64,000 nt of DNA, from the NCBI GenBank assembly GCA_018058135.1, contig JAGPCK010000001.1:60617-124616 (forward strand). The letters are read 5' to 3'. This stretch comes from Bacteroidia bacterium (lineage in GTDB: Bacteria; Bacteroidota; Bacteroidia; UKL13-3). Below are positions 1,945 through 56,525 of the stretch, one piece after another; positions within the stretch are counted from its first letter, which is position 1, and each line of letters opens with the position of its first letter. The notes below the pieces were generated by a model, which searched no databases, had not been told where the DNA came from, and worked only from the letters and a program-made list of their open reading frames with translations. The translations under genes and the position numbers were made by a program.

Positions 1945-2014
1945 CACTTCACTATATCCCAATATTGGCCTTCTTAAAAATGCACAGGTTTGATAAAGCA
2001 ACTTTATTGAATAC

Positions 2015-2704
2015 ATGAAAAGTAGATCGCGTAACATGAATTACAAAAAATTTGTTGAAGCGAAAAAGTATCTCTTCATTGATTACCTTAGCTTAGTTCT
2101 AATTCTATTAGGCCTAACCAGTTTATCTTGTAATAATGATGACAGGACGATTGTGTCCTTTTCTTTTCAGCAAAAAGACACCGTTCCATCCTTTGAAGTA
2201 GTTTTTATCAAATCCGATAATGCTTACCAACTATCTTCCTATTCAAGCAAACAGAAAAAAACGTATGAAATCTCTTATTTGGAAGATGACTTTGGGATAC
2301 ATATTATACAAAAAGATACTAAGAGAAAAACTGCATATAGCTTCTCACAATTGGATACCACTTTCTTACATGAAGTGATTTGTCCTGCATTTTTCGACTA
2401 TTCTTCGACCTTAAAAAGAGTATTCTACATTCCACATAGGCAGCAGAGATTAGTAGTTTACGAGTTTGTTTGCAATTCACGCCAGGGAGAAGATAGTGAA
2501 TTCATGTTATACTATTTAAAGGAACATGGTTTTGTAGCTTTGTTCAATGCAAACTTCGATGCTCTTTTCAGAGTCAAAAAAATACTCAACACTAATGACA
2601 CACACATTAGTTCAAACATTCTTTTTGTATCAAATCATATTGCTGACAGTATTGAAACTACAAGAAAGTTATTGTTTGATAACTTAGGAGGTAAGCTTCC
2701 TTAG
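2015..2704 (+). CDS. Hypothetical AT-rich secreted protein or lipoprotein
   Basis: 229 aa with an N-terminal hydrophobic segment LVLILLGLTSLSC. No recognisable domain. An alternative ATG lies at 2036. Confidence 0.45.
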   Translation: MKSRSRNMNYKKFVEAKKYLFIDYLSLVLILLGLTSLSCNNDDRTIVSFSFQQKDTVPSFEVVFIKSDNAYQLSSYSSKQKKTYEISYLEDDFGIHIIQKDTKRKTAYSFSQLDTTFLHEVICPAFFDYSSTLKRVFYIPHRQQRLVVYEFVCNSRQGEDSEFMLYYLKEHGFVALFNANFDALFRVKKILNTNDTHISSNILFVSNHIADSIETTRKLLFDNLGGKLP

Positions 2705-2724
2705 CCAATCTTAAATTGTGTCCA

Positions 2725-2936
2725 TTGGTTGGCAAGAGAATCCGTCACGCAATGCGAAGAAATGAAACGGAATTTTATGTTGGCCTACGGGAACACGCCC
2801 AGTTGCAGGTAGCTGGTGGCCAGTTTGTCAATACCGTTTACAAAAGCTGCGGTTCGGAGGTCTTTAATTTCGCGGTTGTGGTTACGTATGTCAAACAATT
2901 CATTGGTGGCACCAATCATGGCATCTTCTATACCTG
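2725..2936 (-). pseudogene. Partial diverged copy A of the gdh 3' end (last ~53 codons plus ~95 bp downstream), about 90% identical to 15315..15553
   Basis: Direct alignment to the true gdh terminus. It would encode ..IGATNELFDIRNHNREIKDLRTAAFVNGIDKLATSYLQLGVFP* and shares the downstream string gaagaaatgaaa.ggaattttatgttgg.cctacgggaacac. The ORF track lists the 73-aa remnant at 2785..3006. Confidence 0.8.
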
Positions 2937-3046
2937 ATACATTGGCATTGAACAAATAATTTGTCTTAAAATTAAAGAAAATGTTGGCCATTTGTATGAC
3001 CAACATTTAACTTTTGTGATGATGTGAAAAATCAGGTTCCTTTGGA

Positions 3047-6000
3047 TTACTCTACCAAAAATCTGACAGAGGCCTGTGCAGAATTGCCTAATGTTTTCAC
3101 CCGCATATAATATATACCAGCGGCAGCACCCACTGGCACCATCACCTCTGTTTGGTTGTTGACTGGTTGCGTTGAAATAAGCTGCCCGAGTGCATTGTAG
3201 ATATCTATCTGCTCAACCGGCAATGCTGAAACTACTTTCACCATATTTCTGGCCGGATTAGGGAACAGGTTTACTGTTTGTTGAGATATCTCCGCAACTC
3301 CAGATGAAAGTGCATTCACAGGTTCGCAGGATGACAAGGATGAACAACCATTCAACGTTACCTCCACCTTGTAGCTGCCGCTCACCAGCACTTTCAGGTA
3401 ACTGGAGGTTGCGCCATTCACCGGCTGATTGTTGGCACAATTCATCCACTGATAATTTGCCCCTGTTGTTTCAACTACACGAATGGTATCCTGACTCACT
3501 GAAATGGTAGCTAAGGGCAAAGGAGTTACTCCCATTTCAACCACATTGCTGGTGGCCGTTGAAGTACTTAAGCAACCCGCATTGCTGGTCATGGTGCAAC
3601 TTACCTTATCCTGATTAGCCAGACTACTGCTGCTGAATGTCGCTGCATTATTGCCTGCATTTGTACCATTTATTTTCCATTGATAGGAGGGTAAGGATCC
3701 TCCATTAACAGGGGTGGCTGTAAAGGCAACCAGCGTACCCGCACAAACATCCGAATCAGAAACAGATACAGATACTTCAGGTGTAACTGTTCCTGTGGTG
3801 AAGGTGATGAGGTTGCTTGTAGCGGCATTGGTAGTAACACATCCGGCACTGCTGGTCATGATACAACTCACTTGATCCGTTGCAGTAAGGCCGGATGAGG
3901 AGAATCCCGATGAGTCATTACCCACATTTGCGCTATTGATTCTCCATTGATAGGATGGTGTAGCACCTCCATTAACAGGGGTGGCATTGAAGTACACCGT
4001 TACCCCTGTGCACAGCACCGTTTGACTGGCCGAAATAGTGATTACTGGAGTTGATGGGGCGTTTACCGTAATGGTTACAGCTGTAGAGGTGGCATTTGTG
4101 GGACTTGCACAAGCCGCATTTGAAGTGAGCACACAGGTAACCACATCTCCATTGGCGAGTGTACTTGTTACCAGTGATGCTGCATTACTACTTGTATTAT
4201 TGCCATTTACTTTCCACTGGTAAGCCGGACTACTTCCTTCGTTGGTAACGGTTGCTGTGAAAGTAACCGACTCCCCTTGACAAATATTGGAGGATGAAGC
4301 CGAAACCGATATGGTTGGGGTTACTGCAGAGGTAACACTAACCGTAACGGCATTGCTGGTGGCCGTAGAGGAGGTAAGGCAACTTGCATTGCTCGTCATT
4401 ACACACGTAATCTGGTCGCCATTCGTCAGGTTATTCACCACAAAACTGTCGGCATTGGTGCCTGTGTTGTTGCCATTCACTTTCCATTGATAAGATGGTG
4501 AAGTACCTCCATTGGTTGGGGTAGCATAAAACGCTACGCTTGCGCCAGAACAAATAGTCGTACTTGCTGAGGTGACACTTACCGAAGGTGTGATTGACTG
4601 GGTGGTGAGTGTAATGGCATTGCTGGTGGATGTGGTGGTGGTAACACAAGCTGCGTTGCTGGTCATCACACAGGTTACCTGATCGTTGTTTGAAAAAGTA
4701 TTTGATGCAAAGGTGGCTTGATTGGCGCCTGCATTATTCCCATTTACTTTCCATTGATAAGACGGTGAAGCACCTCCGTTTGATGGTGTTGCTGTAAAAG
4801 TAACCGTTGCACCGCTGCAAATAGAAGTCTGACTGGCTGTAATACTCACCGTTGGTGTAGTAACTGATTGCACCGTCATGGTTACTGCATTTGAAGTAAC
4901 GTTCATAGGGTTTGCACATGCAGCCGAAGAAGTAACCACGCAGGTTACTACCTGACCATTGGTGAGGCTGCTTGTTGTAAAAGAGGCACTGTTTGTTCCC
5001 GCATTCACTGTATCTGTTTTCCATTGATAAGATGGGCTTACTCCTCCATTGGTTACAGTTGCATTAAATGTTGCACTAGCACCACTACAAATAGTGGTCT
5101 GCTGTGTGTTGATACTTACAGAAGGAGTTACATTGGCATTTACAGTAACAGTGATTGTATTGCTGGTGGCGGTAGAGGTGGTAAGGCAACTGGCATTGCT
5201 GGTCATCGCACAAGTTACCTGATCATTATTGGCCAGTGTAGTTGAGGTAAATGTTGCCGAGTTAGTACCAACATTGTTCCCATTCACTTTCCATTGATAA
5301 GAAGGTGCCGTACCTCCATTTGTTGGGGAAGCCGTGAACGTAACAGAGGTACCCGCACACAAAGTAGCACTGCCTGTACTAATGTTTAGTGAAGGTGTTA
5401 TAGACTGGGTGGTCATGGTGATGACATTGCTTGTAGCTGTGGCAGAAGTAACACAACTTGCACTGCTGGTCATTACACAACTTACCTGATCATTATTCGC
5501 TAATGTATTTGTTGAAAATGTAACTGAGTTGGTACCTGCATTGTTCCCGTTAATTTTCCATTGGTAAGATGGGGTTGTTCCTCCGTTGGAAGGTGTAGCT
5601 GTAAACGTAACTGTGACCCCTGAACAAATAGATGTCTGACTTGCCGTAATACTTACCGATGGTGTAACAGGCTGGGAAACTGTTACAGTAATCTGATTTG
5701 AAACAGCCAATGAAGGAATGGGACAAGGCAGGCTCGACACCATGGTACATCTAATGGAATCACCAGTAGCCAGATTTGATGGCGTGTAGGTGGCAGAGTT
5801 GGTGCCAACATTTGTTCCGTTTCGTTTCCACTGAAACACCGGACTCGTTCCTCCATTGGTGGGATTTGCCGTGAAGGTTACCTGACTGCCTGCACATACT
5901 GTAGTTTGTGAAGCACTGATTTGAACGGAAACATTCACGGTAGCCGAAGAAGTAACATTTAAACTGGCTGCAGAGGAGTTTCCACATGAGTTCACTGCAC

Positions 6001-33564: not shown

Positions 33565-34209
33565 TTGAAACCGTATATCCTGATATTCATCTTTTTTATT
33601 ACCTGCGGGGCTTTTGCACAAAATCAGCCTCCGGTTTTTGTACAACCCAATTACACGGATACAGCATTGGAGGCAGAACTGGATACCTGCCTCAGTATTG
33701 TTATTGATGCACCCGAGGTTGGCGACAGCGTAATATTCTGGATAGAAGGAGAACTGGTGAACAAAGACAGTAATGCCTTCATTCCTTTAAATATTGACCG
33801 TTCGACAGGTACACTAACTACTCAACTCTGTTTAAAAAATGTGTGCCGTAAGGTGCGTGGCGAACCATACGCATTTAAGTTGTTTGCCCGTGACTCCTCT
33901 TTTGACACCAGTGTTTATACGCTAAACATTTATCTAACCAACAGCCTTTCGCAGGAAATGCGCAAATTACCCAATGTGTTTACACCCAACGGTGATGGCA
34001 TAAACGATGAATTTAAACTGATAGATTCCAAAGCACAATGCGCCAACCTGTTTAGTATAACCGTGTTTAACCGGTGGGGGCAAAAGGTGTACGAAAACAA
34101 TCGGGTAAGTTTTAGCTGGGATGGCGGAAAAAGCCCTGACGGAGTGTATTTTTATATTATAGAAGCAGGCGGTGACGGGGTAAACGGAATACTGAACTTA
34201 ATTAGGTGA
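33565..34209 (+). CDS. Small secreted protein with T9SS type B (gliding-motility-associated, CHU_C-like) C-terminal domain
   Basis: Signal KPYILIFIFFITCGAFAQ. C-terminal region LPNVFTPNGDGINDEFKL...FNRWGQKVYE...DGVYFYIIEA matches the type B sorting domain. Only a TTG start is available. The 3' end overlaps the convergent thioredoxin gene by 12 bp. Confidence 0.7.
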   Translation: MKPYILIFIFFITCGAFAQNQPPVFVQPNYTDTALEAELDTCLSIVIDAPEVGDSVIFWIEGELVNKDSNAFIPLNIDRSTGTLTTQLCLKNVCRKVRGEPYAFKLFARDSSFDTSVYTLNIYLTNSLSQEMRKLPNVFTPNGDGINDEFKLIDSKAQCANLFSITVFNRWGQKVYENNRVSFSWDGGKSPDGVYFYIIEAGGDGVNGILNLIR

Positions 34210-34668
34210 CTTTGACTCCTGAATAATGGAGTTAAGCAACTGCATAAAATCTTCCGGCTTTAGGTACCCGGGTTGAACAATTAACCTGTTTTTTACTGTA
34301 ATAATAAAGTAGGTGGTAGGATAACCATATCGTTGGTTGTTGGAAATCATCATGTGCAACTCCACTCCGCTGTAGGTTTGTCCGTTGAGTTCATACTTTA
34401 TATTAGGTATCTCAGGATTGAACTTGATGGGTACAAAATATTTATTCAGCGTTTTTACCACCTCAGGATTAGTGTAGGTATCACGGTCCATTTTTTTGCA
34501 CCAGCCGCACCATTCCGTGTAGGCATCAATGAGTGCAATCTTCTTTTCGCTCACCGCTTTGGGGTAACCATCGTTCCAGGTTTCCCATTTAAGTGATTCT
34601 GCCTGTGGTGTTTGCGAAAGGGCAAACAACGGTAATGCCAGCAATACCGATACAATTAATTTTTGCAT
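34198..34668 (-). CDS. Thioredoxin-fold protein (secreted thiol:disulfide oxidoreductase-like)
   Basis: Signal MQKLIVSVLLALPLFALSQ and the WCGWCKKMD CxxC motif. Confidence 0.75.
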   Translation of the reverse strand: MQKLIVSVLLALPLFALSQTPQAESLKWETWNDGYPKAVSEKKIALIDAYTEWCGWCKKMDRDTYTNPEVVKTLNKYFVPIKFNPEIPNIKYELNGQTYSGVELHMMISNNQRYGYPTTYFIITVKNRLIVQPGYLKPEDFMQLLNSIIQESKSPN

Positions 34669-34815
34669 GTCAGGTTTGTTTCAAAAACTATTCCAATGCG
34701 CAATATAAAAGAATAGGGCATATATTTCACATGGAAAAAGCGCCAGGCAAACTGATATGGAACAAAGGAAAGACTTACTTTTAAAACAAATGCACCAACA
34801 GCCCTGAAAGGGCGC

Positions 34816-34858
34816 CCTACCCATGCGAGGGGTGATAGCCCCTCGGCACGGAAGACAA
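34816..34858 (+). repeat. R1 hairpin repeat, copy 1 (ccctacccatgcgaggggtgatagcccctcggcacggaagacaa)
   Basis: Nearly identical to 36267..36310. Contains the perfect stem cgagggg / cccctcg. Confidence 0.75.
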
Positions 34859-34955
34859 ATAATAAGTGGAGTGTAACAGCAGGTTCTCGTACTTACGACA
34901 CATAGCTTGTCGCTAATGTATAAATTTATCTTTAAATTGTCAATAACGAGAAGAA

Positions 34956-34988
34956 CGGCACAAGCTACAAGCTCGCGCCAGCGAGGGG
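34956..34988 (+). repeat. R2 hairpin repeat, copy 1 (cggcacaagctacaagctcgcgccagcgagggg)
   Basis: Nearly identical to 35499..35528. Stem ctcgc/gcgag. Ends 8 bp from the stop codon of the 34996..35430 gene. Confidence 0.75.
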
Positions 34989-34995
34989 AAGGCTG

Positions 34996-35430
34996 CTACT
35001 CAACGGTAAAATAATAATTTGAATAAATTACTTTCCATTGAGATCCAACTATTGTTACAGCTAACATCTTATATCCACTTTGAATTGGCATTTCAAAACA
35101 AGTACTTCTAGTTAAATTAATAATTTTCAATTTATCTCCTCTTTTTCTTCTTTTTAGTATTAAGGATTGTTTAGTATGCCCATTGTCACTGCTTTTTAAT
35201 ACTAATGTTTTTACTAACTTTTTATTTTGATATACTAAAACACTATCTCCTTTAAATCCATTAAAGAAGCTTATTAATATTTGATTAGAATCTATCCCAA
35301 CAATTTCCCTTCTTTTTTCACCTTGCCTTAGTTTAATGAATTCTGGTACAATTTCACATGAAATTGTTTGTGAAAATATATGGCAATTTGTAAAGACAAA
35401 AAATACTAGAAATATCAAACGTATAAGCAT
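34996..35430 (-). CDS. Hypothetical small secreted protein, very AT-rich
   Basis: ATG start and signal peptide MLIRLIFLVFFVFTNCHIFSQ. 144 aa. No recognised domain. Confidence 0.55.
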   Translation of the reverse strand: MLIRLIFLVFFVFTNCHIFSQTISCEIVPEFIKLRQGEKRREIVGIDSNQILISFFNGFKGDSVLVYQNKKLVKTLVLKSSDNGHTKQSLILKRRKRGDKLKIINLTRSTCFEMPIQSGYKMLAVTIVGSQWKVIYSNYYFTVE

Positions 35431-35498
35431 ATTTTAATTATTATTCATCGAGACCAATTGTTTTAGTCATATGTAGAAGCTTATCAGGCGTGGAAGTA

Positions 35499-35528
35499 CG
35501 GCACGAGCTACAAGCTCGCGCCAGCGAG
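35499..35528 (+). repeat. R2 hairpin repeat, copy 2
   Basis: cggcacgagctacaagctcgcgccagcgag, ending 7 bp from the stop codon of the 35535..36098 gene. Confidence 0.75.
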
Positions 35529-35534
35529 AGCATG

Positions 35535-36098
35535 TTAAATTTCAAAATTTAATATGTATCGATTAGATTTTAAACATTTACATTTTATTCTTTTTCCCTT
35601 ACAATAAGAAATTTTTTGAGTTATCATTATTAATTCATTAATCGTCAAAGGATGCTTCGATCTTAAAATTGGTTTCAATAGATCAAAAGATTTTCCTAGC
35701 ACTATAGTTACCTCATTCACTCTTCTATTCCAATCCATTGGAATAAAAACGCTTATACCGCTGTATGAAGGGTGGAAAACTTCAATTTTAAATCCATTTA
35801 GTGATAAAGGAATTTTTATTACAGCAGTATCGATTGTAAAGAATTTCAAACAATTTGAATCTGTTATCACAGAAAAATTAACAAACTCAATCGGTTTAGA
35901 ATCCTCATCAACTACATTAATTTTAACCCATTGAATAGAAGAATCTGTTAATTGAGTGTGATTTGTATCAATTGAGTAAAAGTAATAACTAGGCCTATCA
36001 TTTAATCGCAATCTATACTCGTATTTATAAACATTAGTTTGGGCTATTAAACTATGAATAAAAGATAGAACAAATAATATAATGAATGTGTACCTCAT
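35535..36098 (-). CDS. Hypothetical small secreted protein, very AT-rich
   Basis: ATG start and signal MRYTFIILFVLSFIHSLIAQ. 187 aa. Confidence 0.55.
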   Translation of the reverse strand: MRYTFIILFVLSFIHSLIAQTNVYKYEYRLRLNDRPSYYFYSIDTNHTQLTDSSIQWVKINVVDEDSKPIEFVNFSVITDSNCLKFFTIDTAVIKIPLSLNGFKIEVFHPSYSGISVFIPMDWNRRVNEVTIVLGKSFDLLKPILRSKHPLTINELIMITQKISYCKGKRIKCKCLKSNRYILNFEI

Positions 36099-36266
36099 TG
36101 GGATAGATAATTAATTGCTTTTTGCCTTTCTTCTTGTGTTAGTCTATTAATGTCTCACCTGATACTCGTTTGCAATGAGTACCCTCTTTTTGTTTTGCGT
36201 TTGTAACTCTCCCTTCAGAAATTGCCATTTTACTCAAAAGTATGAAATTGTTTCCAAACCTTTGCT

Positions 36267-36310
36267 CCCTACCCATGCGAGGGGTGATAGCCCCTCGGTA
36301 AGGAAGACAA
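36267..36310 (+). repeat. R1 hairpin repeat, copy 2
   Basis: ccctacccatgcgaggggtgatagcccctcggtaaggaagacaa, located 7 bp upstream of the ATG at 36317. Confidence 0.75.
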
Positions 36311-36430
36311 TGAAAAATGAATAAAATAACTTCGCCATTAAACGAAAAAAACTGCCGATTAACAGGAAAAGACACCCATTACAAAGATGAACGCTATGTT
36401 AAACGAAGTAAAATATGCAACTTTACCTTC

Positions 36431-36796
36431 ATGAGCCAAACCAAAATACTAGTAGTTGATGACGAAATAATTTTACGGGAGTACCTTACAGAGCTTTTAG
36501 AGCTTGAAGGGTTTTCCACCCTTTCTGCAGGGAGCGCGGCTGAAGCTATAGGGCTATTGAAAAATAACCAATCCGCACTGGTAATTAGCGACTTATTTCT
36601 TGGCCAAAGCAGCGGTATGGAAATTTTGGAACACCTCAAACTTACACAAGCAAACACCCCCTGCTATATTATGTCGGCTGATTTAACGGAGGAAATTAGA
36701 GGAAAATGCATGCAGGCAGGTGCAAAGGGATTGATAAAAAAACCTTTTGATAACAGTGATATCATCTCTCTTATCAAAAATAATTTTTCAAAGTGA
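36431..36796 (+). CDS. Stand-alone response-regulator receiver (CheY-like) protein
   Basis: MSQTKILVVDDEIILREYL..ALVISDL..KKPF carries the conserved DD, the phospho-acceptor D and the K of REC domains. The track's ORF begins 38 codons earlier, at 36317 directly after repeat R1; which start is used is unresolved. Confidence 0.75.
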   Translation: MSQTKILVVDDEIILREYLTELLELEGFSTLSAGSAAEAIGLLKNNQSALVISDLFLGQSSGMEILEHLKLTQANTPCYIMSADLTEEIRGKCMQAGAKGLIKKPFDNSDIISLIKNNFSK

Positions 36797-36871: not shown

Positions 36872-38764
36872 TTGAATAAGAGAAGCCTAATTATTATCTG
36901 GTTAATACTTGCATTATCCCTTGGGGCTACAAAAACTGTGTCGGCAGAAAATAACCCCGTAGTAGATAGTTTGAATGCCGTTATAGAAGCCACAGAAAAT
37001 GACACCACTAAAGTTGACCTGCTGATTGCTCTTAGCGAAGAGTTTAAAGACAACGATAAAGTAAAGGCGATTGAGATACTAAACTCAGCAATGAAATTTG
37101 CTAAAACAGCCAATTCAAAAATAAGACAAGCTTCTATTCTGAGAGCAATGGGAAGTGTGTACATCGGCCAGGCTGATTTAGATAAAGCCACTCAGGTATT
37201 GTTCTCATCCATAAAAATAAGTGAGGACATTAAAGAGTGGGAAGGTGCAGCTTCAGCATACATTCTATTGGGCCGACTACATATGGAAAAGGGGTTGGAT
37301 GACAATGCCTCCAAAAATGCCCTCAAATATTTTATAAAATCTCTTGACGCACTGGAGAAGGCAGGGAACAAAAAAAGAATTGCCGCAGTACTTAACAACA
37401 TTGGAACAGCATATGGCTCCATGAATGATTATTCAACAGCCATTGTATATTTATTGAAAAGCCTGAAAATACGGGAAGAAATAAAAGATGATGCTGGTAT
37501 TGCCTCTACACTCAGCAATATAGGCTTAATATATTCCCATCAAAATGACTATGATAAAGCACTGGTTTATCAAATGAAAAGTCTGGTTATTCGGGAGCGC
37601 ATTGGCGACAAAAAAATGATTGCCAACTCCTTGAACAATATAGGTGATGTTTATGCGGCTAAGGGTGATTATGACAAAGCCATTGAATGGTTAAAAAAAG
37701 GTTTAGAAAGTGCATTAGAAACAGGCAATAAATATTTTGAAAAGAACAGTTATAACGGTCTAACAGAGGTATATGAGGCAAAAAATGATTTTGCAAATGC
37801 ACTTATTTATGCCAGAAAATATGAAGAATTAAAGGACATGATGCTGAACGCAGAAAGCGATGAGCAAATACAGGAACTTGAAACAAAATATGAGACCGAA
37901 AAGAAAGAAAAAACCATACAGAATTTAACCAAAGAACAACTGGCTAAAGAAACTGAAATAGTAAGAAGAAGAACAGTAAACACCTTTGTACTTATTGGTG
38001 CTTCTGTCATTGCTTTAGTGTTGCTTTTTACTTACCGTACCTACAGACAAAAGCAAGAAGCCAATGAATTACTCACTAAATTGGACAAAGAGAAAAATGA
38101 ATTTCTGGGCATTGCAGCGCATGACTTAAAAAATCCTCTACAAACAATTATTGGTTATTGCCAAATGCAAACAAGTTACTTTGATAAACTGAGTAAAGAA
38201 AAAATTCTTAAACAAACCAATAACATTGAAATTACTTCAGCACGTATGCTTGATTTGGTGAGCAATCTGCTGGATATAAATGCTATTGAAGAAGGTCTGA
38301 TAAAGGTTAATAAAGAAAAAACAGCGTTATTACCCCTGCTGGAAAAAATTACTGATGGTATAGAAAATCAGGCCTCCCACAAAGGGATTAAAGTACATTT
38401 GGAAACTACAGAAAAGAATATTGAGGTAATTACTGACGCATTATTGCTCAGACAAATTATTGAAAATTTATTAAGCAATGGCATAAAATACTCACCCGAA
38501 TCATCTGAAGTAGTGCTGCGTTGTGCAAAAACAAACGGCAGAATTGAAATTGCTATAATAGACAGCGGACCAGGTATTCCGGTAGACGAACAAGAGCTTT
38601 TATTTAAAAAGTTTTCCAGGTTAAGTACCCGCCCTACTGCTGGAGAATCTTCTCATGGCTTAGGCTTATCTATCGTAAAAAAACTGTCTGACCTGCTGAG
38701 TATTGAAGTGAGTTTCGAAAGTGAGCAAGGTAAAGGTTCCACATTTAAACTTTTACTGCCATGA
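36872..38764 (+). CDS. TPR-repeat sensor histidine kinase (signal peptide, periplasmic TPR repeats, transmembrane segment, HisKA, HATPase_c)
   Basis: TPR motifs A..L..G.VY...D.A are repeated. Transmembrane segment FVLIGASVIALVLLF. H-box LGIAAHDLKNPLQ. G-boxes IIDSGPGI and GLGLSIV. Only a TTG start is available at 36872. Confidence 0.8.
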   Translation: MNKRSLIIIWLILALSLGATKTVSAENNPVVDSLNAVIEATENDTTKVDLLIALSEEFKDNDKVKAIEILNSAMKFAKTANSKIRQASILRAMGSVYIGQADLDKATQVLFSSIKISEDIKEWEGAASAYILLGRLHMEKGLDDNASKNALKYFIKSLDALEKAGNKKRIAAVLNNIGTAYGSMNDYSTAIVYLLKSLKIREEIKDDAGIASTLSNIGLIYSHQNDYDKALVYQMKSLVIRERIGDKKMIANSLNNIGDVYAAKGDYDKAIEWLKKGLESALETGNKYFEKNSYNGLTEVYEAKNDFANALIYARKYEELKDMMLNAESDEQIQELETKYETEKKEKTIQNLTKEQLAKETEIVRRRTVNTFVLIGASVIALVLLFTYRTYRQKQEANELLTKLDKEKNEFLGIAAHDLKNPLQTIIGYCQMQTSYFDKLSKEKILKQTNNIEITSARMLDLVSNLLDINAIEEGLIKVNKEKTALLPLLEKITDGIENQASHKGIKVHLETTEKNIEVITDALLLRQIIENLLSNGIKYSPESSEVVLRCAKTNGRIEIAIIDSGPGIPVDEQELLFKKFSRLSTRPTAGESSHGLGLSIVKKLSDLLSIEVSFESEQGKGSTFKLLLP

Positions 38765-40656
38765 GGAAGAACGTGTGTATTTTTCTTTTCCTGCTTACTA
38801 CTGCGATTACTCACAAGTGCTTGGCCACAACAGAAGACCCGGAACTAATACACTTGATTGACAGCCTCAAAAAGCGCAGTGAAATGAACCTTCATGATAC
38901 AGAGAAGATGAAGGTGTACTATGATTTGGGTGACTATCTGGTAAAAGCAGAACCCGAGGCAGCTAAGAAATACCTTGATCTTTCTTTGGCACTCAGCGAA
39001 AAATATGATAACCTCAAACTGAAGAAAAGAAATCTTGAGCGCATTGGTGTATATTTCAAAGACAAAGGCAAATATGGTATTGCTCTAAGCTACCAGATAA
39101 ATGCACTGAAAATAGCTGAAAAACAGCAGGACACTTTCGGAATTGCGGTGTGCTGTAACAACATTGGTGTAATATATAAGAGTCTACATAAGTACGATAA
39201 AGCGCTTGAGTATTATTTACGCTCTAATAAATTGTGTGAACTGGCCAATAAAACACAGGGATACATTATGACCCTGAACAACATTGGTACTGCTTACAAT
39301 GACCAAGGTGATTATAAAAGAGCTAAACCATATTATGAAAAGGCCTTAACAAAAGCCAAAGAAACCGGTGATAATAGCGCCATAAGTGTTGCATTAAATA
39401 ACTTAGGAGAAGTTTATGCTCTGGAGCAAAATCATGATAAAGCCTTGCTGTATTTTAAACAGTGCCTCGAAATTGACAGAAACTTAGGTGATCAGTTTGG
39501 CGAGTTACTTTCTATGATTAACATAGCAGGTTCTTATGTTAACCTCCAGCAATATAAACAAGCTGAAAGTGAATATTACCGTGCTTATGAATTGGCACAT
39601 AAACTAAACGGAAATTATTATCTGAGCGATATACACAAAAACCTTTCAGAGCTATACACTAAAAACGCTAATCACAAAAAAGCTTTTGAACATTATAAGC
39701 TACATGTAAGCTATAAAGACAGCATTTTTAACGAAGAGAACAACAAAAATCTGACAGATTTACAACTGCAGTACGAAACAGAAAAAAAAGAACAGGCCAT
39801 TGTATCACTAAACAACGAAAAAGAGTACAAAAACGCCAAAATAAAAATGCAGAAATCAGTACAGGTGGTGAGTATTTCCATTGGTCTGCTGCTATTACTC
39901 TCTCTTCTTTCGCTATATAATTTGTATCGCCTTAAATCAAAAACAAATGAACAACTTATACTACTGAACAAGGAGAAAAATGAATTTCTGAGTATTGCTG
40001 CACATGACTTAAAAAACCCTTTGCAAACCATTAAAGGGTATTGCCGCATGCAAAAAGATTATTTCGATAAACTGAGCAAAGAAAAAATGTTGCACTATAC
40101 GCATAACATTGAAATAGCCGCACGCAACATGGTTGAATTAATCAGCAATCTGCTCGACATTAACGCCATTGAATCAGGGCACATCAAAAACCAAACTGAA
40201 GACATTAATCTGAATGAATTTATGGAAAAGGCAGTAGTTAATTTCAGGTTAGCTGCCAATCAGAAAAGCATTCGGCTGATATTTATTCCTCACAAAGAAA
40301 TCACCATTGTGAATGCTGATGCCGCCTGGTTAAAACAAATTACCGACAATCTAATGAGCAATGCCATCAAATACTCACCTATAAACAGTGAGGTTACACT
40401 GGCAATTATAAATGATAGCAAAACCTGTGGCTTTTATGTACAAGACCATGGCGAAGGAATAAGTAAAGCTGATCAAAAGCAACTCTTTAATAAATTTACC
40501 CGCCTATCGTCAAAACCAACAGCTGGTGAAAGCAGCAATGGATTAGGGCTTTCAATCGTTAAAAAACTCGCTGATGTTATAGGTGCTGAAATTATTTGCG
40601 ACTCTGACAAAGGCAAAGGATGTAGGTTTACTGTTGTAAAAACTAATGAAAAATAA
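38761..40656 (+). CDS. TPR-repeat sensor histidine kinase, tandem paralog of the preceding gene
   Basis: Same architecture. H-box LSIAAHDLKNPLQTIKGYCRMQ, G-boxes VQDHGEGI and GLGLSIV. An ATGA overlap with the upstream gene. Confidence 0.8.
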   Translation: MRKNVCIFLFLLTTAITHKCLATTEDPELIHLIDSLKKRSEMNLHDTEKMKVYYDLGDYLVKAEPEAAKKYLDLSLALSEKYDNLKLKKRNLERIGVYFKDKGKYGIALSYQINALKIAEKQQDTFGIAVCCNNIGVIYKSLHKYDKALEYYLRSNKLCELANKTQGYIMTLNNIGTAYNDQGDYKRAKPYYEKALTKAKETGDNSAISVALNNLGEVYALEQNHDKALLYFKQCLEIDRNLGDQFGELLSMINIAGSYVNLQQYKQAESEYYRAYELAHKLNGNYYLSDIHKNLSELYTKNANHKKAFEHYKLHVSYKDSIFNEENNKNLTDLQLQYETEKKEQAIVSLNNEKEYKNAKIKMQKSVQVVSISIGLLLLLSLLSLYNLYRLKSKTNEQLILLNKEKNEFLSIAAHDLKNPLQTIKGYCRMQKDYFDKLSKEKMLHYTHNIEIAARNMVELISNLLDINAIESGHIKNQTEDINLNEFMEKAVVNFRLAANQKSIRLIFIPHKEITIVNADAAWLKQITDNLMSNAIKYSPINSEVTLAIINDSKTCGFYVQDHGEGISKADQKQLFNKFTRLSSKPTAGESSNGLGLSIVKKLADVIGAEIICDSDKGKGCRFTVVKTNEK

Positions 40657-55625: not shown

Positions 55626-56525
55626 TTGAACTGGCAAAGTTACCTCAAAGGTTACCGCTCCTGGTTGCAGCTGGAGAAATCGCTTTCACACAACAGCATG
55701 GAAGCTTACCTGCATGATGTAGAAAAACTATTGCAATTTTTTGCTCACAAAAAACTGGAACGCACGCCTGAGAATGTAACCTACGAAGACCTTACCGAAT
55801 TTATACGATGGATTAATGAACTGGGCATGACAGCTACCTCGCAAGCGCGTATCATCAGCGGACTGAAATCTTTTTATAAATACCTTTTGATTGAAGACGT
55901 GCTCAAAAAAACACCCACTGAATTGCTGGAAGCACCAAAAACCATCCGGCACTTACCAGATGTGCTGGCCGTAAGTGAAATTGACGCGCTGATTGCTGCC
56001 ATTGATTTGAGCAAGCCGGAAGGCATGCGCAACAAGGCTATTTTAGAAACCATGTTCAGCTGCGGATTGCGAGTGAGTGAAACCGTGAACCTGCACATAA
56101 GTCACATTTTTTTTGATGATGAATTTGTGAAGGTAACCGGAAAAGGTGACAAGGAACGTTTGGTGCCCATTGGCCAATCAGCTATTAAGGCTATACGTTT
56201 ATACAAAGACAACGTGCGCAATCACCTGGAAATAAAAGCAGGGAACTCCGACATTCTTTTTCTTAACCGCAGAGGAAGTAAAATGAGCCGGGGAATGATT
56301 TTTTACATCATTAAAGAACTGGCTAAAAACATCGGGTTAAAGAAAAATATCAGTCCGCACACGTTCAGGCATTCTTTTGCTACAGCTCTGGTAGAAGGCG
56401 GTGCCGACCTGCGTGCCGTACAACAAATGCTGGGACACGAAAGCATAACCACTACCGAAATTTACACGCATCTTGACCGCGAGTACCTGCGCGAAACCCT
56501 GATGCAGTTTCACCCGAGGGCATGA
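55626..56525 (+). CDS. xerD: Tyrosine site-specific recombinase XerD
   Basis: ..SPHTFRHSFATALVEGGADLRAVQQMLGHESITTTEIYTHL.. carries the R..H..R..Y catalytic signature. The N-terminal SAM-like domain aligns with XerD. The exact start is uncertain: the track's start is a TTG at 55626 and the first ATG is at 55698. Confidence 0.8.
   Translation: MNWQSYLKGYRSWLQLEKSLSHNSMEAYLHDVEKLLQFFAHKKLERTPENVTYEDLTEFIRWINELGMTATSQARIISGLKSFYKYLLIEDVLKKTPTELLEAPKTIRHLPDVLAVSEIDALIAAIDLSKPEGMRNKAILETMFSCGLRVSETVNLHISHIFFDDEFVKVTGKGDKERLVPIGQSAIKAIRLYKDNVRNHLEIKAGNSDILFLNRRGSKMSRGMIFYIIKELAKNIGLKKNISPHTFRHSFATALVEGGADLRAVQQMLGHESITTTEIYTHLDREYLRETLMQFHPRA

Follow-up and report, generated by a model that had tools for sequence, protein, structure and literature searches.

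Why would two unrelated, AT-rich genes for small exported proteins, each followed directly by a copy of the same hairpin repeat and together bracketed by two copies of another, stand between conserved genes of a Bacteroidota genome? The question is raised by a block within a 64-kb stretch of a Bacteroidia genome (GCA_018058135.1, contig JAGPCK010000001.1, positions 60,617 to 124,616; 41.3% GC), here called the window, to which all counts of REP copies and hairpins and the scan for recombinases in the source DNA apply. The first-pass annotation of this stretch named the repeats R1 and R2 and likened the layout to integron-type cassettes, to genes delivered by miniature inverted-repeat transposable elements (MITEs), or to structured small RNAs. 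Comparison with loci fetched from elsewhere (L-numbers below; W is the window allele) leads to an answer that we consider probable as a whole: the block is a strain-variable islet of exported-protein cassettes set in a spacer of ~130 nt, R2 is a repetitive extragenic palindrome (REP) of the kind that accompanies REP-associated tyrosine transposases (RAYTs) in the Bacteroidota, and a doublet of inverted REPs (a REPIN) is the joint at which the cassettes are recombined.

A variable islet at a fixed intergenic site

In two sister species, whose thioredoxin-like proteins are 74% and 69% identical to the one encoded beside the block, the flanking genes are adjacent and divergent with ~120–150 nt between them, and this spacer holds no R1, no R2, and no cassette. 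It maps solely to window positions 36392–36323 and 34710–34681, and because it matches only the DNA on either side of the block, the ~1.6 kb in between (34711–36322) represents a lineage-specific insert. An exact-protein look-up found the identical thioredoxin-like protein encoded beside different genes in other assemblies, and at least five alleles of the one site (W, L003, L004/L006, L126, and L131/L129) occur in conspecific strains. The array is bounded by the response regulator and the thioredoxin-like gene in every complete allele.

Read from the response regulator toward the thioredoxin-like gene, allele W is composed of R1, g187, R2, g144, REPIN, and R1. On the same reading, with left ends that lie outside the sequence seen, L003 consists of g216, REPIN, g217, E3 (a conserved element described below), and R1, and L004/L006 of gX, g135, REPIN, g172, E3, and R1. 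The allele L126–128 has gY, g187' (92% amino acid identity), and other open reading frames (ORFs), with no R2 after g187'. A complete allele with three cassettes, L131, lies on a 164-kb contig from the JGI metagenome 3300015615 (1990–4400) and reads g187, R2, g144, REPIN, g173, followed by a truncated E3; R1 copy 1 and most of E3 were deleted at a short CAGGG-type junction, and L129 is a further deletion derivative. L131 thus joins the left module of W (g187-R2-g144) to the right module of L004 (the 172/173-aa gene).

These alleles show that the islet, in an uncultured Bacteroidota species, occupies a fixed intergenic site and varies in content from strain to strain. The cassette-like layout seen in the first-pass annotation therefore holds at the level of the population, where sister sites are empty and strains carry different small exported-protein genes, and does not hold as an integron-like mechanism. 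Like flexible genomic islets described elsewhere, the block lies between conserved core genes and differs between strains; unlike them, and unlike the join-points of REP-mediated rearrangements, the units exchanged here are single small genes, each ending at a repeat, which gives the locus its integron-like look.

R2 belongs to a phylum-wide family of REPs

R2 is present in exactly two copies in the window (34956–34985 and 35499–35528) that are 94% identical over a repeat of 36 nt, and neither a looser regular expression nor a covariance model found a further copy in the 64 kb. The annotated two-copy repeat after two unrelated AT-rich genes is thereby confirmed, with several corrections of detail. 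Taken as REP units, the copies begin 5 nt (copy 1, 144-aa gene) and 1 nt (copy 2, 187-aa gene) past the stop codon; measured to R2 as first defined, the gaps are 10 and 6 nt and not 7–8. The stem was given as ctcgc/gcgag; the conserved one is GGCGCGAGCN/N'GCTYGTGCC, which on the minus (gene-sense) strand has 10 bp closed by a loop of 3 nt. Each copy has the sense orientation, the only one in which it is G-U compatible; at the A/G difference between them, the minus-strand hairpin has a G-U pair in one copy and G-C in the other.

The hairpin is not private to these two sites. A search of one genome per species with the loop left free (TGGCGCGAGC-N5-GCTYGTGCCG, an exact pattern that sees conserved copies only) returned 88 loci, ~60 of which are from low-GC Bacteroidota of many orders; carriers include Chryseobacterium, Flavobacterium, Maribacter, Pontibacter, Hymenobacter, Mucilaginibacter, Chitinophaga-like genomes, Capnocytophaga, and metagenome-assembled genomes (MAGs) of Bacteroidales and Cytophagia. 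Some 25 matches from high-GC genomes appear to have arisen by chance or to lie in coding sequence. Two of the 88 loci are from Pasteurellaceae (L026 and L042), where the hairpin occurs as inverted doublets, and hint at a horizontal spread of the RAYT/REP pair across phyla.

The low-GC units share an order of C-rich tract, GC, T, and a hairpin with a conserved G.T mismatch. Across 63 copies, 99.7% of cells are paired, and the 5′ flank consists of the C-tract and GC (G in 56 and C in 49 of the 63). The tenth stem pair, formed by the first and last loop positions that the pattern had left free, is Watson–Crick in 60 of the 63 copies (GC, TA, AT, or CG) and covaries, with 31 double changes; in the high-GC matches these positions pair in 12 of 25. 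The stem is therefore really 10 bp with a 3-nt loop and is under selection. A covariance model built solely from R2 copies of other genomes scores both window copies above 50 bits (Table 1) and finds nothing significant elsewhere in the window or in the sister-species loci. On this basis R2 reads as a REP and a bona fide member of the phylum-wide family, of an atypical rather than canonical kind, since the GT[AG]G or CGTC tag at the stem foot is absent from the 63 copies.

The family is also tied to RAYT genes, homologs of which occur in eight of the loci. The hairpin in L036 and L071 adjoins an ORF of 178 aa that scores 108 bits, with a cut-off of 80, against the NCBIfam model for REP-associated tyrosine transposases (NF047646). 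Hairpins lie on both sides of the RAYT gene in L071, L105, L080, and L032, and copies lie beside it in L081, L097, and L036. Complete RAYT genes have a sense hairpin upstream and an inverted hairpin downstream (a REPtron), and in L032 nine R2-type hairpins in both orientations are packed within 1.5 kb (3277–4717) around the RAYT gene (4263–3724). By their length of 178 aa and the motifs NHLH, WQ, and YLHNNP, the hairpin-adjacent RAYTs appear to match TnpA-Y1 subclass 2.6 (Bertels group 5), which is found mostly in Bacteroidetes, has a median length of 179 aa and the motifs NH[LIV]H, WQ, and YIH[QN]NP, and has “atypical secondary structures” on its flanks (Quentin et al. 2018, PMC6006769). The missing tag agrees with that label.

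In many loci an inverted copy follows 30–60 nt after the first, the arrangement of bacterial interspersed mosaic elements (BIMEs) and REPINs, and loci of 8 kb in other genomes hold one to nine copies. R2 thus shares with the REP/REPIN–RAYT systems (PMC6006769) a short, extragenic, imperfect palindrome, the inverted doublets, the copies flanking RAYT genes, and the position just 3′ of genes. It differs from canonical REPs in having a conserved GC and C-tract 5′ of the stem in place of the tag, and from REPs and REPINs in its low density in the window. In seven loci (L025, L029, L038, L064, L086, L074, and L047), an R2-type REP stands beside a small ORF of 94–190 aa, often with a signal peptide; the association with small AT-rich genes therefore recurs in several unrelated Bacteroidota, where the ORFs are clearly more AT-rich than the genome.

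Searches for a previously described element gave little. Neither the gathering threshold nor permissive ones brought up an Rfam family in the window, the region, or three allelic loci, apart from a sub-threshold, unrelated match to an L2 leader and a match to Acido-Lenti-1 on R1. A literature search by the repeat sequence strings retrieved unrelated primers only, and among viral contigs R2 had one match and GGTAGTGTACCATTTATCAC none.

The REPIN as a probable joint between cassette modules

By its alignment with REP doublets of other genomes, the stretch at 34886–34990 (‘R2ext’) is a doublet with a decayed second arm. Its distal part, 34896–34916, is TTAGCGACAAGCTATGTGTCG and aligns with the inverted second REP of those doublets, which explains the inverted tagcttgt/acaagcta segment that had been noticed between R1 and R2. 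The first-pass annotation had treated R1 and R2 together as one structured element of ~170 bp (34816–34988). The two occur independently: R2 with its inverted partner is found without R1 in L003, L004, and L131, and R1 stands without R2 at 36264. A single structured RNA of ~170 nt was considered and rejected in view of this separability, the empty Rfam result, and fold z-scores that, at −2.0 and −3.0, are modest. The suggestion of a MITE survives in so far as R2 and its inverted partner form a REPIN, itself a miniature mobile element; nothing in these loci points to the delivery of genes by it.

The doublet is shared between alleles with different neighbors. Ninety-five nucleotides of it (34888–34982) recur, flanked by unrelated genes in both cases, in L003 (732–826) with 97% identity and in L004 with 87.5%. 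The REPINs of W, L003, and L004/L131 part from one another at two places close together in the decayed second REP, and the L131 copy is a mosaic, with a W-type 5′ half that includes a 7-nt TCGTTAT indel and the same point states, and L004-type sequence from ...GCTATGAG onward. The identity between unrelated neighbors and the mosaic of two alleles in L131 both suggest that the REPIN is a joint where cassette modules are exchanged between strains, a role that has the support of one allele. In known REP-mediated rearrangements, too, a repeated palindrome supplies the identity that joins unrelated flanks.

Other repeats of the islet

A second motif marks cassette ends in the other alleles. In five unrelated cassette ORFs, the 11-mer GGTAGTGTACC overlaps the stop codon or lies at it or a few bases away, and it is usually followed by ATTTATCAC; sites are at L003 682 and 1563, L004 619 and 1369, L126 777, L129 52, and L131 ~4196, with the variants TTTAGTGTACC and TATAGTGTACC. 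Near-matches occur at a background of ~2–3 per 128 kb searched, against five in ~3.5 kb of islet sequence, and allele W lacks the motif, which may serve as a further junction element or as the target site of some recombinase. The motif and its neighbors were also considered as a dif-like Xer site, and this was dropped since the arms do not form inverted repeats. E3, a conserved element of ~150 nt between the last cassette and R1 (L003 1563–1720, L004 1369–1520), has two hairpins, GAGGGTATTCACCCTC and CAGGGTATTTACCCTG, that resemble the R1 hairpin GAGGGGCTATCACCCCTC; the likeness suggests that the E3 and R1 hairpins, all in direct orientation, make up one small local family.

The 32-nt core of R1, CCCTACCCATGCGAGGGGTGATAGCCCCTCGG, occurs exactly twice in the window (34815–34846 and 36267–36298, both on the plus strand) and in none of 100 shuffles. 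The full repeat is a direct one of 54 nt with 89% identity and a spacing of 1452 nt, and its perfect 7-bp stem accounts for two of the four perfect G + C-rich hairpins with a stem of at least 6 bp in the whole window. R1 bounds the block as annotated, and all four R1 and R2 copies lie around the two unrelated low-GC genes. The repeat was found nowhere else: an exact 25/26-mer matched one contig in the JGI metagenomes, which is this locus, viral contigs gave no match, no R1-like sequence was present at other places in all of the fetched loci, and the repeat is absent from the locus in both sister species. On R1, the best sub-threshold Rfam match reached 23.1 bits, with 37.8 needed, to an unrelated leader.

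R1 is private to the species, and it is dispensable, since copy 1 is deleted in L129 and L131 and the hairpin of copy 2 is degenerate in L131, with a broken stem; in L004/L006 the R1 copy has one stem change that pairs only as G-U on the plus strand. An interpretation of R1 as a GTAG-tagged REP was dropped, the adjacent stem being only 4 bp and missing at copy 2. Most likely, R1 is a local duplication that brackets allele W, a by-product of the assembly of the islet, and the pair could provide homology enough for a loop-out or Campbell-type exchange of the whole block.

Cassette genes and their products

The two AT-rich ORFs of the window exist as annotated, with hydrophobic N-termini and no similarity to each other; both lie on the minus strand, and their GC contents (Table 1) are below the ~28% first given. 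Comparison of W with L126 places the boundaries of the g187 cassette at ATTAATAGAC (36151) and at the stop codon. Upstream of the array, we infer that the region of the −7 box candidate TACTTTTG is the promoter. By inspection, the cassette ORFs of all alleles have signal-peptide or lipoprotein-like N-termini. No family in Pfam (which includes Imm/SUKH) or PADLOC matched any of six cassette proteins at threshold, NCBIfam gave no match for the two proteins of the window, and a word-indexed protein search with the cassette proteins returned only near-identical copies (92–99% identity). An immunity or surface-variation role for these proteins would be a guess.

Twelve distant homologs of g187 were found, all small exported proteins. 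An alignment-based AlphaFold 2 model of g187 reached a predicted local distance difference test score (pLDDT) of 81.8, that of a single-sequence model being 37, and its best fold match is to the SusC N-terminal extension (NTE) and the transthyretin-like (TTL) domain of carboxypeptidase D (E 2.5e-4), a generic predicted similarity that implies no specific function. A homolog with 36% identity lies in a textbook integron cassette array on a 33%-GC MAG contig (L123, GCA_020435805.1, JAGQZA010000187.1, 1–1750). Cassettes there start G|TTATGG (~224) and G|TTAGCA (~964), and each G + C-rich 3′ element of ~170 nt opens with the exact reverse complement of its cassette's start, CCATAAC (793) or TGCTAAC (1553), and closes with ...GGACCG|TT; no integrase is encoded on the 3.9-kb contig. 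The cargo type of g187 therefore travels as cassettes elsewhere. The same contig carries a DUF805b RNA motif (RF02914) at 3740–3772, with 38.9 bits and a gathering score of 35.6.

Alternative explanations

Could R2 (and R1) be merely intrinsic terminators or stabilizers of the 3′ untranslated region, carried along with acquired genes and without a role in DNA rearrangement? The sense orientation, the G-U compatibility, and the placement straight after stop codons would all suit such elements, and a terminator-like scan does pick up R2 copy 1 (11 pairs, then TTCTTCTC). Copy 2, however, has no T-run, at least five T in eight positions follow the hairpin in just 13 of 63 family members, the Chryseobacterium hairpin is followed by a separate terminator hairpin, and R1 has no T-run on either strand. 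Near-identity across orders, inverted doublets, and the flanking of RAYT genes are not properties of terminators, and the REPIN mosaic at an allele junction is a further point against this explanation, so that a pure terminator role for R2 is unlikely. We regard as doubtful, to a somewhat greater degree, an array of orphan immunity genes gathered by a XerD-family recombinase that acts on repeated intergenic sequence, as in the recombinase-associated acquired interbacterial defense (rAID-1) arrays of Bacteroidales. The locus agrees with three of the four published criteria (bioRxiv 10.1101/471110; PMC12247911): at least two co-oriented, short, low-GC genes for exported proteins with repetitive intergenic sequence are present in a member of the Bacteroidota (two to three genes of 26–27% GC, with R2 or the REPIN between them). 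The recurrent GGTAGTGTACC at cassette ends could also be a recombinase site. In contrast to rAID-1 (Ross et al. 2019, bioRxiv 10.1101/471110), none of the alleles has a recombinase gene, XerD-like or other, directly beside the array, nor is there one in the 6 kb to its left or right; the arrays are far shorter (rAID-1 has up to 31 genes), and the cassette proteins have no recognizable immunity domains.

Two further explanations draw on the geometry of the block. Direct subterminal hairpins without terminal inverted repeats or target duplication are the end geometry of the insertion sequences IS200/IS605 (IS608), and the R1 hairpins are near-identical, direct, and 1.45 kb apart in a block that likewise lacks these two features, as they would be if they were the left and right ends of a non-autonomous element mobilized by a Y1 transposase in trans. 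This is highly unlikely given that R1 is confined to this locus in the JGI metagenomes, viral contigs, and fetched loci, that L131 keeps its cassettes without R1 copy 1, and that the alleles differ inside the R1 pair and not as whole units. Least credible of all, and given almost no weight here, is the integron of the first-pass annotation, in which R2 would be the attC site of an integrase-less cluster recombined by an IntI encoded elsewhere. It would account for co-oriented, compositionally foreign small ORFs, each with a 3′ palindrome, at a site that varies between strains, and for the g187 homolog carried as a genuine cassette in L123. The core sites are missing, though, as the annotation itself had observed: neither R2 is bracketed by a RYYYAAC...GTTRRRY pair (R''/R'), nor does a GTT occur between it and the next gene. 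The R2 hairpin measures 23 nt against 57–141 nt for attC and has no long, imperfect palindrome in which bases are extrahelical; throughout the phylum it is conserved in sequence and flanks RAYT genes rather than intI; and the array has its own upstream region, not an attI/Pc platform. No recombinase was found within 6 kb on either side of the array, nor an IntI beside it. The closest integrase-family gene is 19 kb off (55626–56525), the only tyrosine recombinase in the window, XerD-like with Phage_integrase and SAM-like N domains; as it has the same neighbor, aroQ, and conserved synteny in a sister species, it is probably a housekeeping Xer unlinked to the islet.

The reading of the block as a REP-jointed islet also has points to its disadvantage. 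The canonical tag is missing, there is no RAYT in the window, and R2 copies are few, both of the two in 64 kb lying in the one islet. Several cassettes of other alleles end with GGTAGTGTACC and not R2, so R2 is not the sole junction element. The evidence for a crossover inside the repeat is thin, a single mosaic allele, and the low frequency of T-runs in the family counts against a role at the level of RNA.

Discussion

If the REPIN is indeed the joint, it would act as a portable stretch of identity of ~100 nt at which left- and right-hand cassette modules are recombined between strains. Exchange could proceed by plain RecA-type homologous recombination on the repeat, or could be helped by RAYT nicking or cleavage or by hairpin extrusion. 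A more demanding proposal, that the REP/REPIN and GGTAGTGTACC are sites of a Bacteroidota gene-cassette exchange system driven by the Y1 HUH enzyme (the RAYT) or another recombinase, seems improbable to us. Were it true, the system would be a functional counterpart of the integron that works through the processing of single-strand hairpins, gathering genes for small exported proteins at fixed intergenic sites, with immunity or surface-variation genes as possible cargo.

The hairpins may also act on the transcripts. In Escherichia coli, REP hairpins protect upstream mRNA from 3′ exonucleases, partly terminate transcription, and can reduce translation when close to a stop codon. By analogy, the sense R2 hairpins on the cassette mRNA would form 3′ stem-loops that stabilize or partly terminate the transcripts, and with the hairpin foot ~12–16 nt from the stop codon, they may damp translation.

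REPs, REPINs, and flexible genomic islets are known kinds of element, and the RAYT clade of R2 is known and poorly described. Moderately noteworthy are the conservation of the REP across orders, the mosaic with the REPIN at its joint, and the unexplained end motif GGTAGTGTACC. REPs are usually described as species-specific; the R2 hairpin is near-invariant across many orders and in two Pasteurellaceae, in a search by exact pattern that sees conserved copies only, and this conservation runs against the species-specific view. A conserved REP would make the clade a convenient model for RAYT–REP recognition. The joints of this small islet, which is being reshuffled among co-occurring strains, are occupied by members of a REP family whose sequence hardly varies among Bacteroidota and which is linked to RAYTs of a little-studied clade. 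Should the joint role be true, REPINs would structure micro-scale gene exchange in an environmental lineage, beyond littering intergenic DNA; should it be false, nothing sets the locus apart from other flexible islets in which selfish palindromes of the common sort have settled.

Coordinates and flanking genes

Table 1. Positions of the islet, its repeats and cassettes, and the genes on either side, in window coordinates
Feature	Position	Strand	Remarks
Thioredoxin-like (DUF255) gene, conserved flank	34198..34668	-	Family match; identical protein adjoins different cassettes in other assemblies
Lineage-specific, strain-variable insert between divergent thioredoxin-like and response-regulator genes	34711..36322		~1.6 kb; 32.5% GC
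R1 copy 1	34812..34865	+	Perfect 7-bp hairpin 34826–34845; in alleles W, L003, L007
REPIN	34886..34990	-	R2 copy 1, 47-nt spacer, degenerate inverted REP at 34896–34916; aligns with REP doublets of other genomes
R2 copy 1, REP unit	34954..34990	-	C-rich tail, GC, 10-bp hairpin 34957–34979; covariance model 50.6 bits, E 3e-12
g144, small exported protein of 144 aa	34996..35430	-	26.0% GC; no relatives detected outside the species
R2 copy 2, single REP unit	35497..35533	-	Hairpin 35500–35522; covariance model 51.2 bits, E 2e-12
g187 cassette	35535..36151	-	ORF 35535–36098 (26.6% GC) with 53-nt leader; exported, transthyretin-like beta-sandwich in the predicted model
Upstream region of the cassette array	36152..36263	-	Candidate Bacteroidota-type −7 box; conserved in L017, L018, L131
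R1 copy 2	36264..36317	+	Hairpin 36278–36297; 114 nt upstream of the likely response-regulator start
Single-domain response regulator, conserved flank	36431..36796	+	Likely start 36431

The ATG at 36317 is probably not where the response regulator starts. The start at 36431 is likelier because one source assembly and the sister species annotate a protein of 120–127 aa. Downstream of this gene are two tandem paralogous histidine kinases with tetratricopeptide repeats (630 and 631 aa; 36872–40656) and then a LytS-like kinase and a LytTR regulator, a layout common to the sister species.

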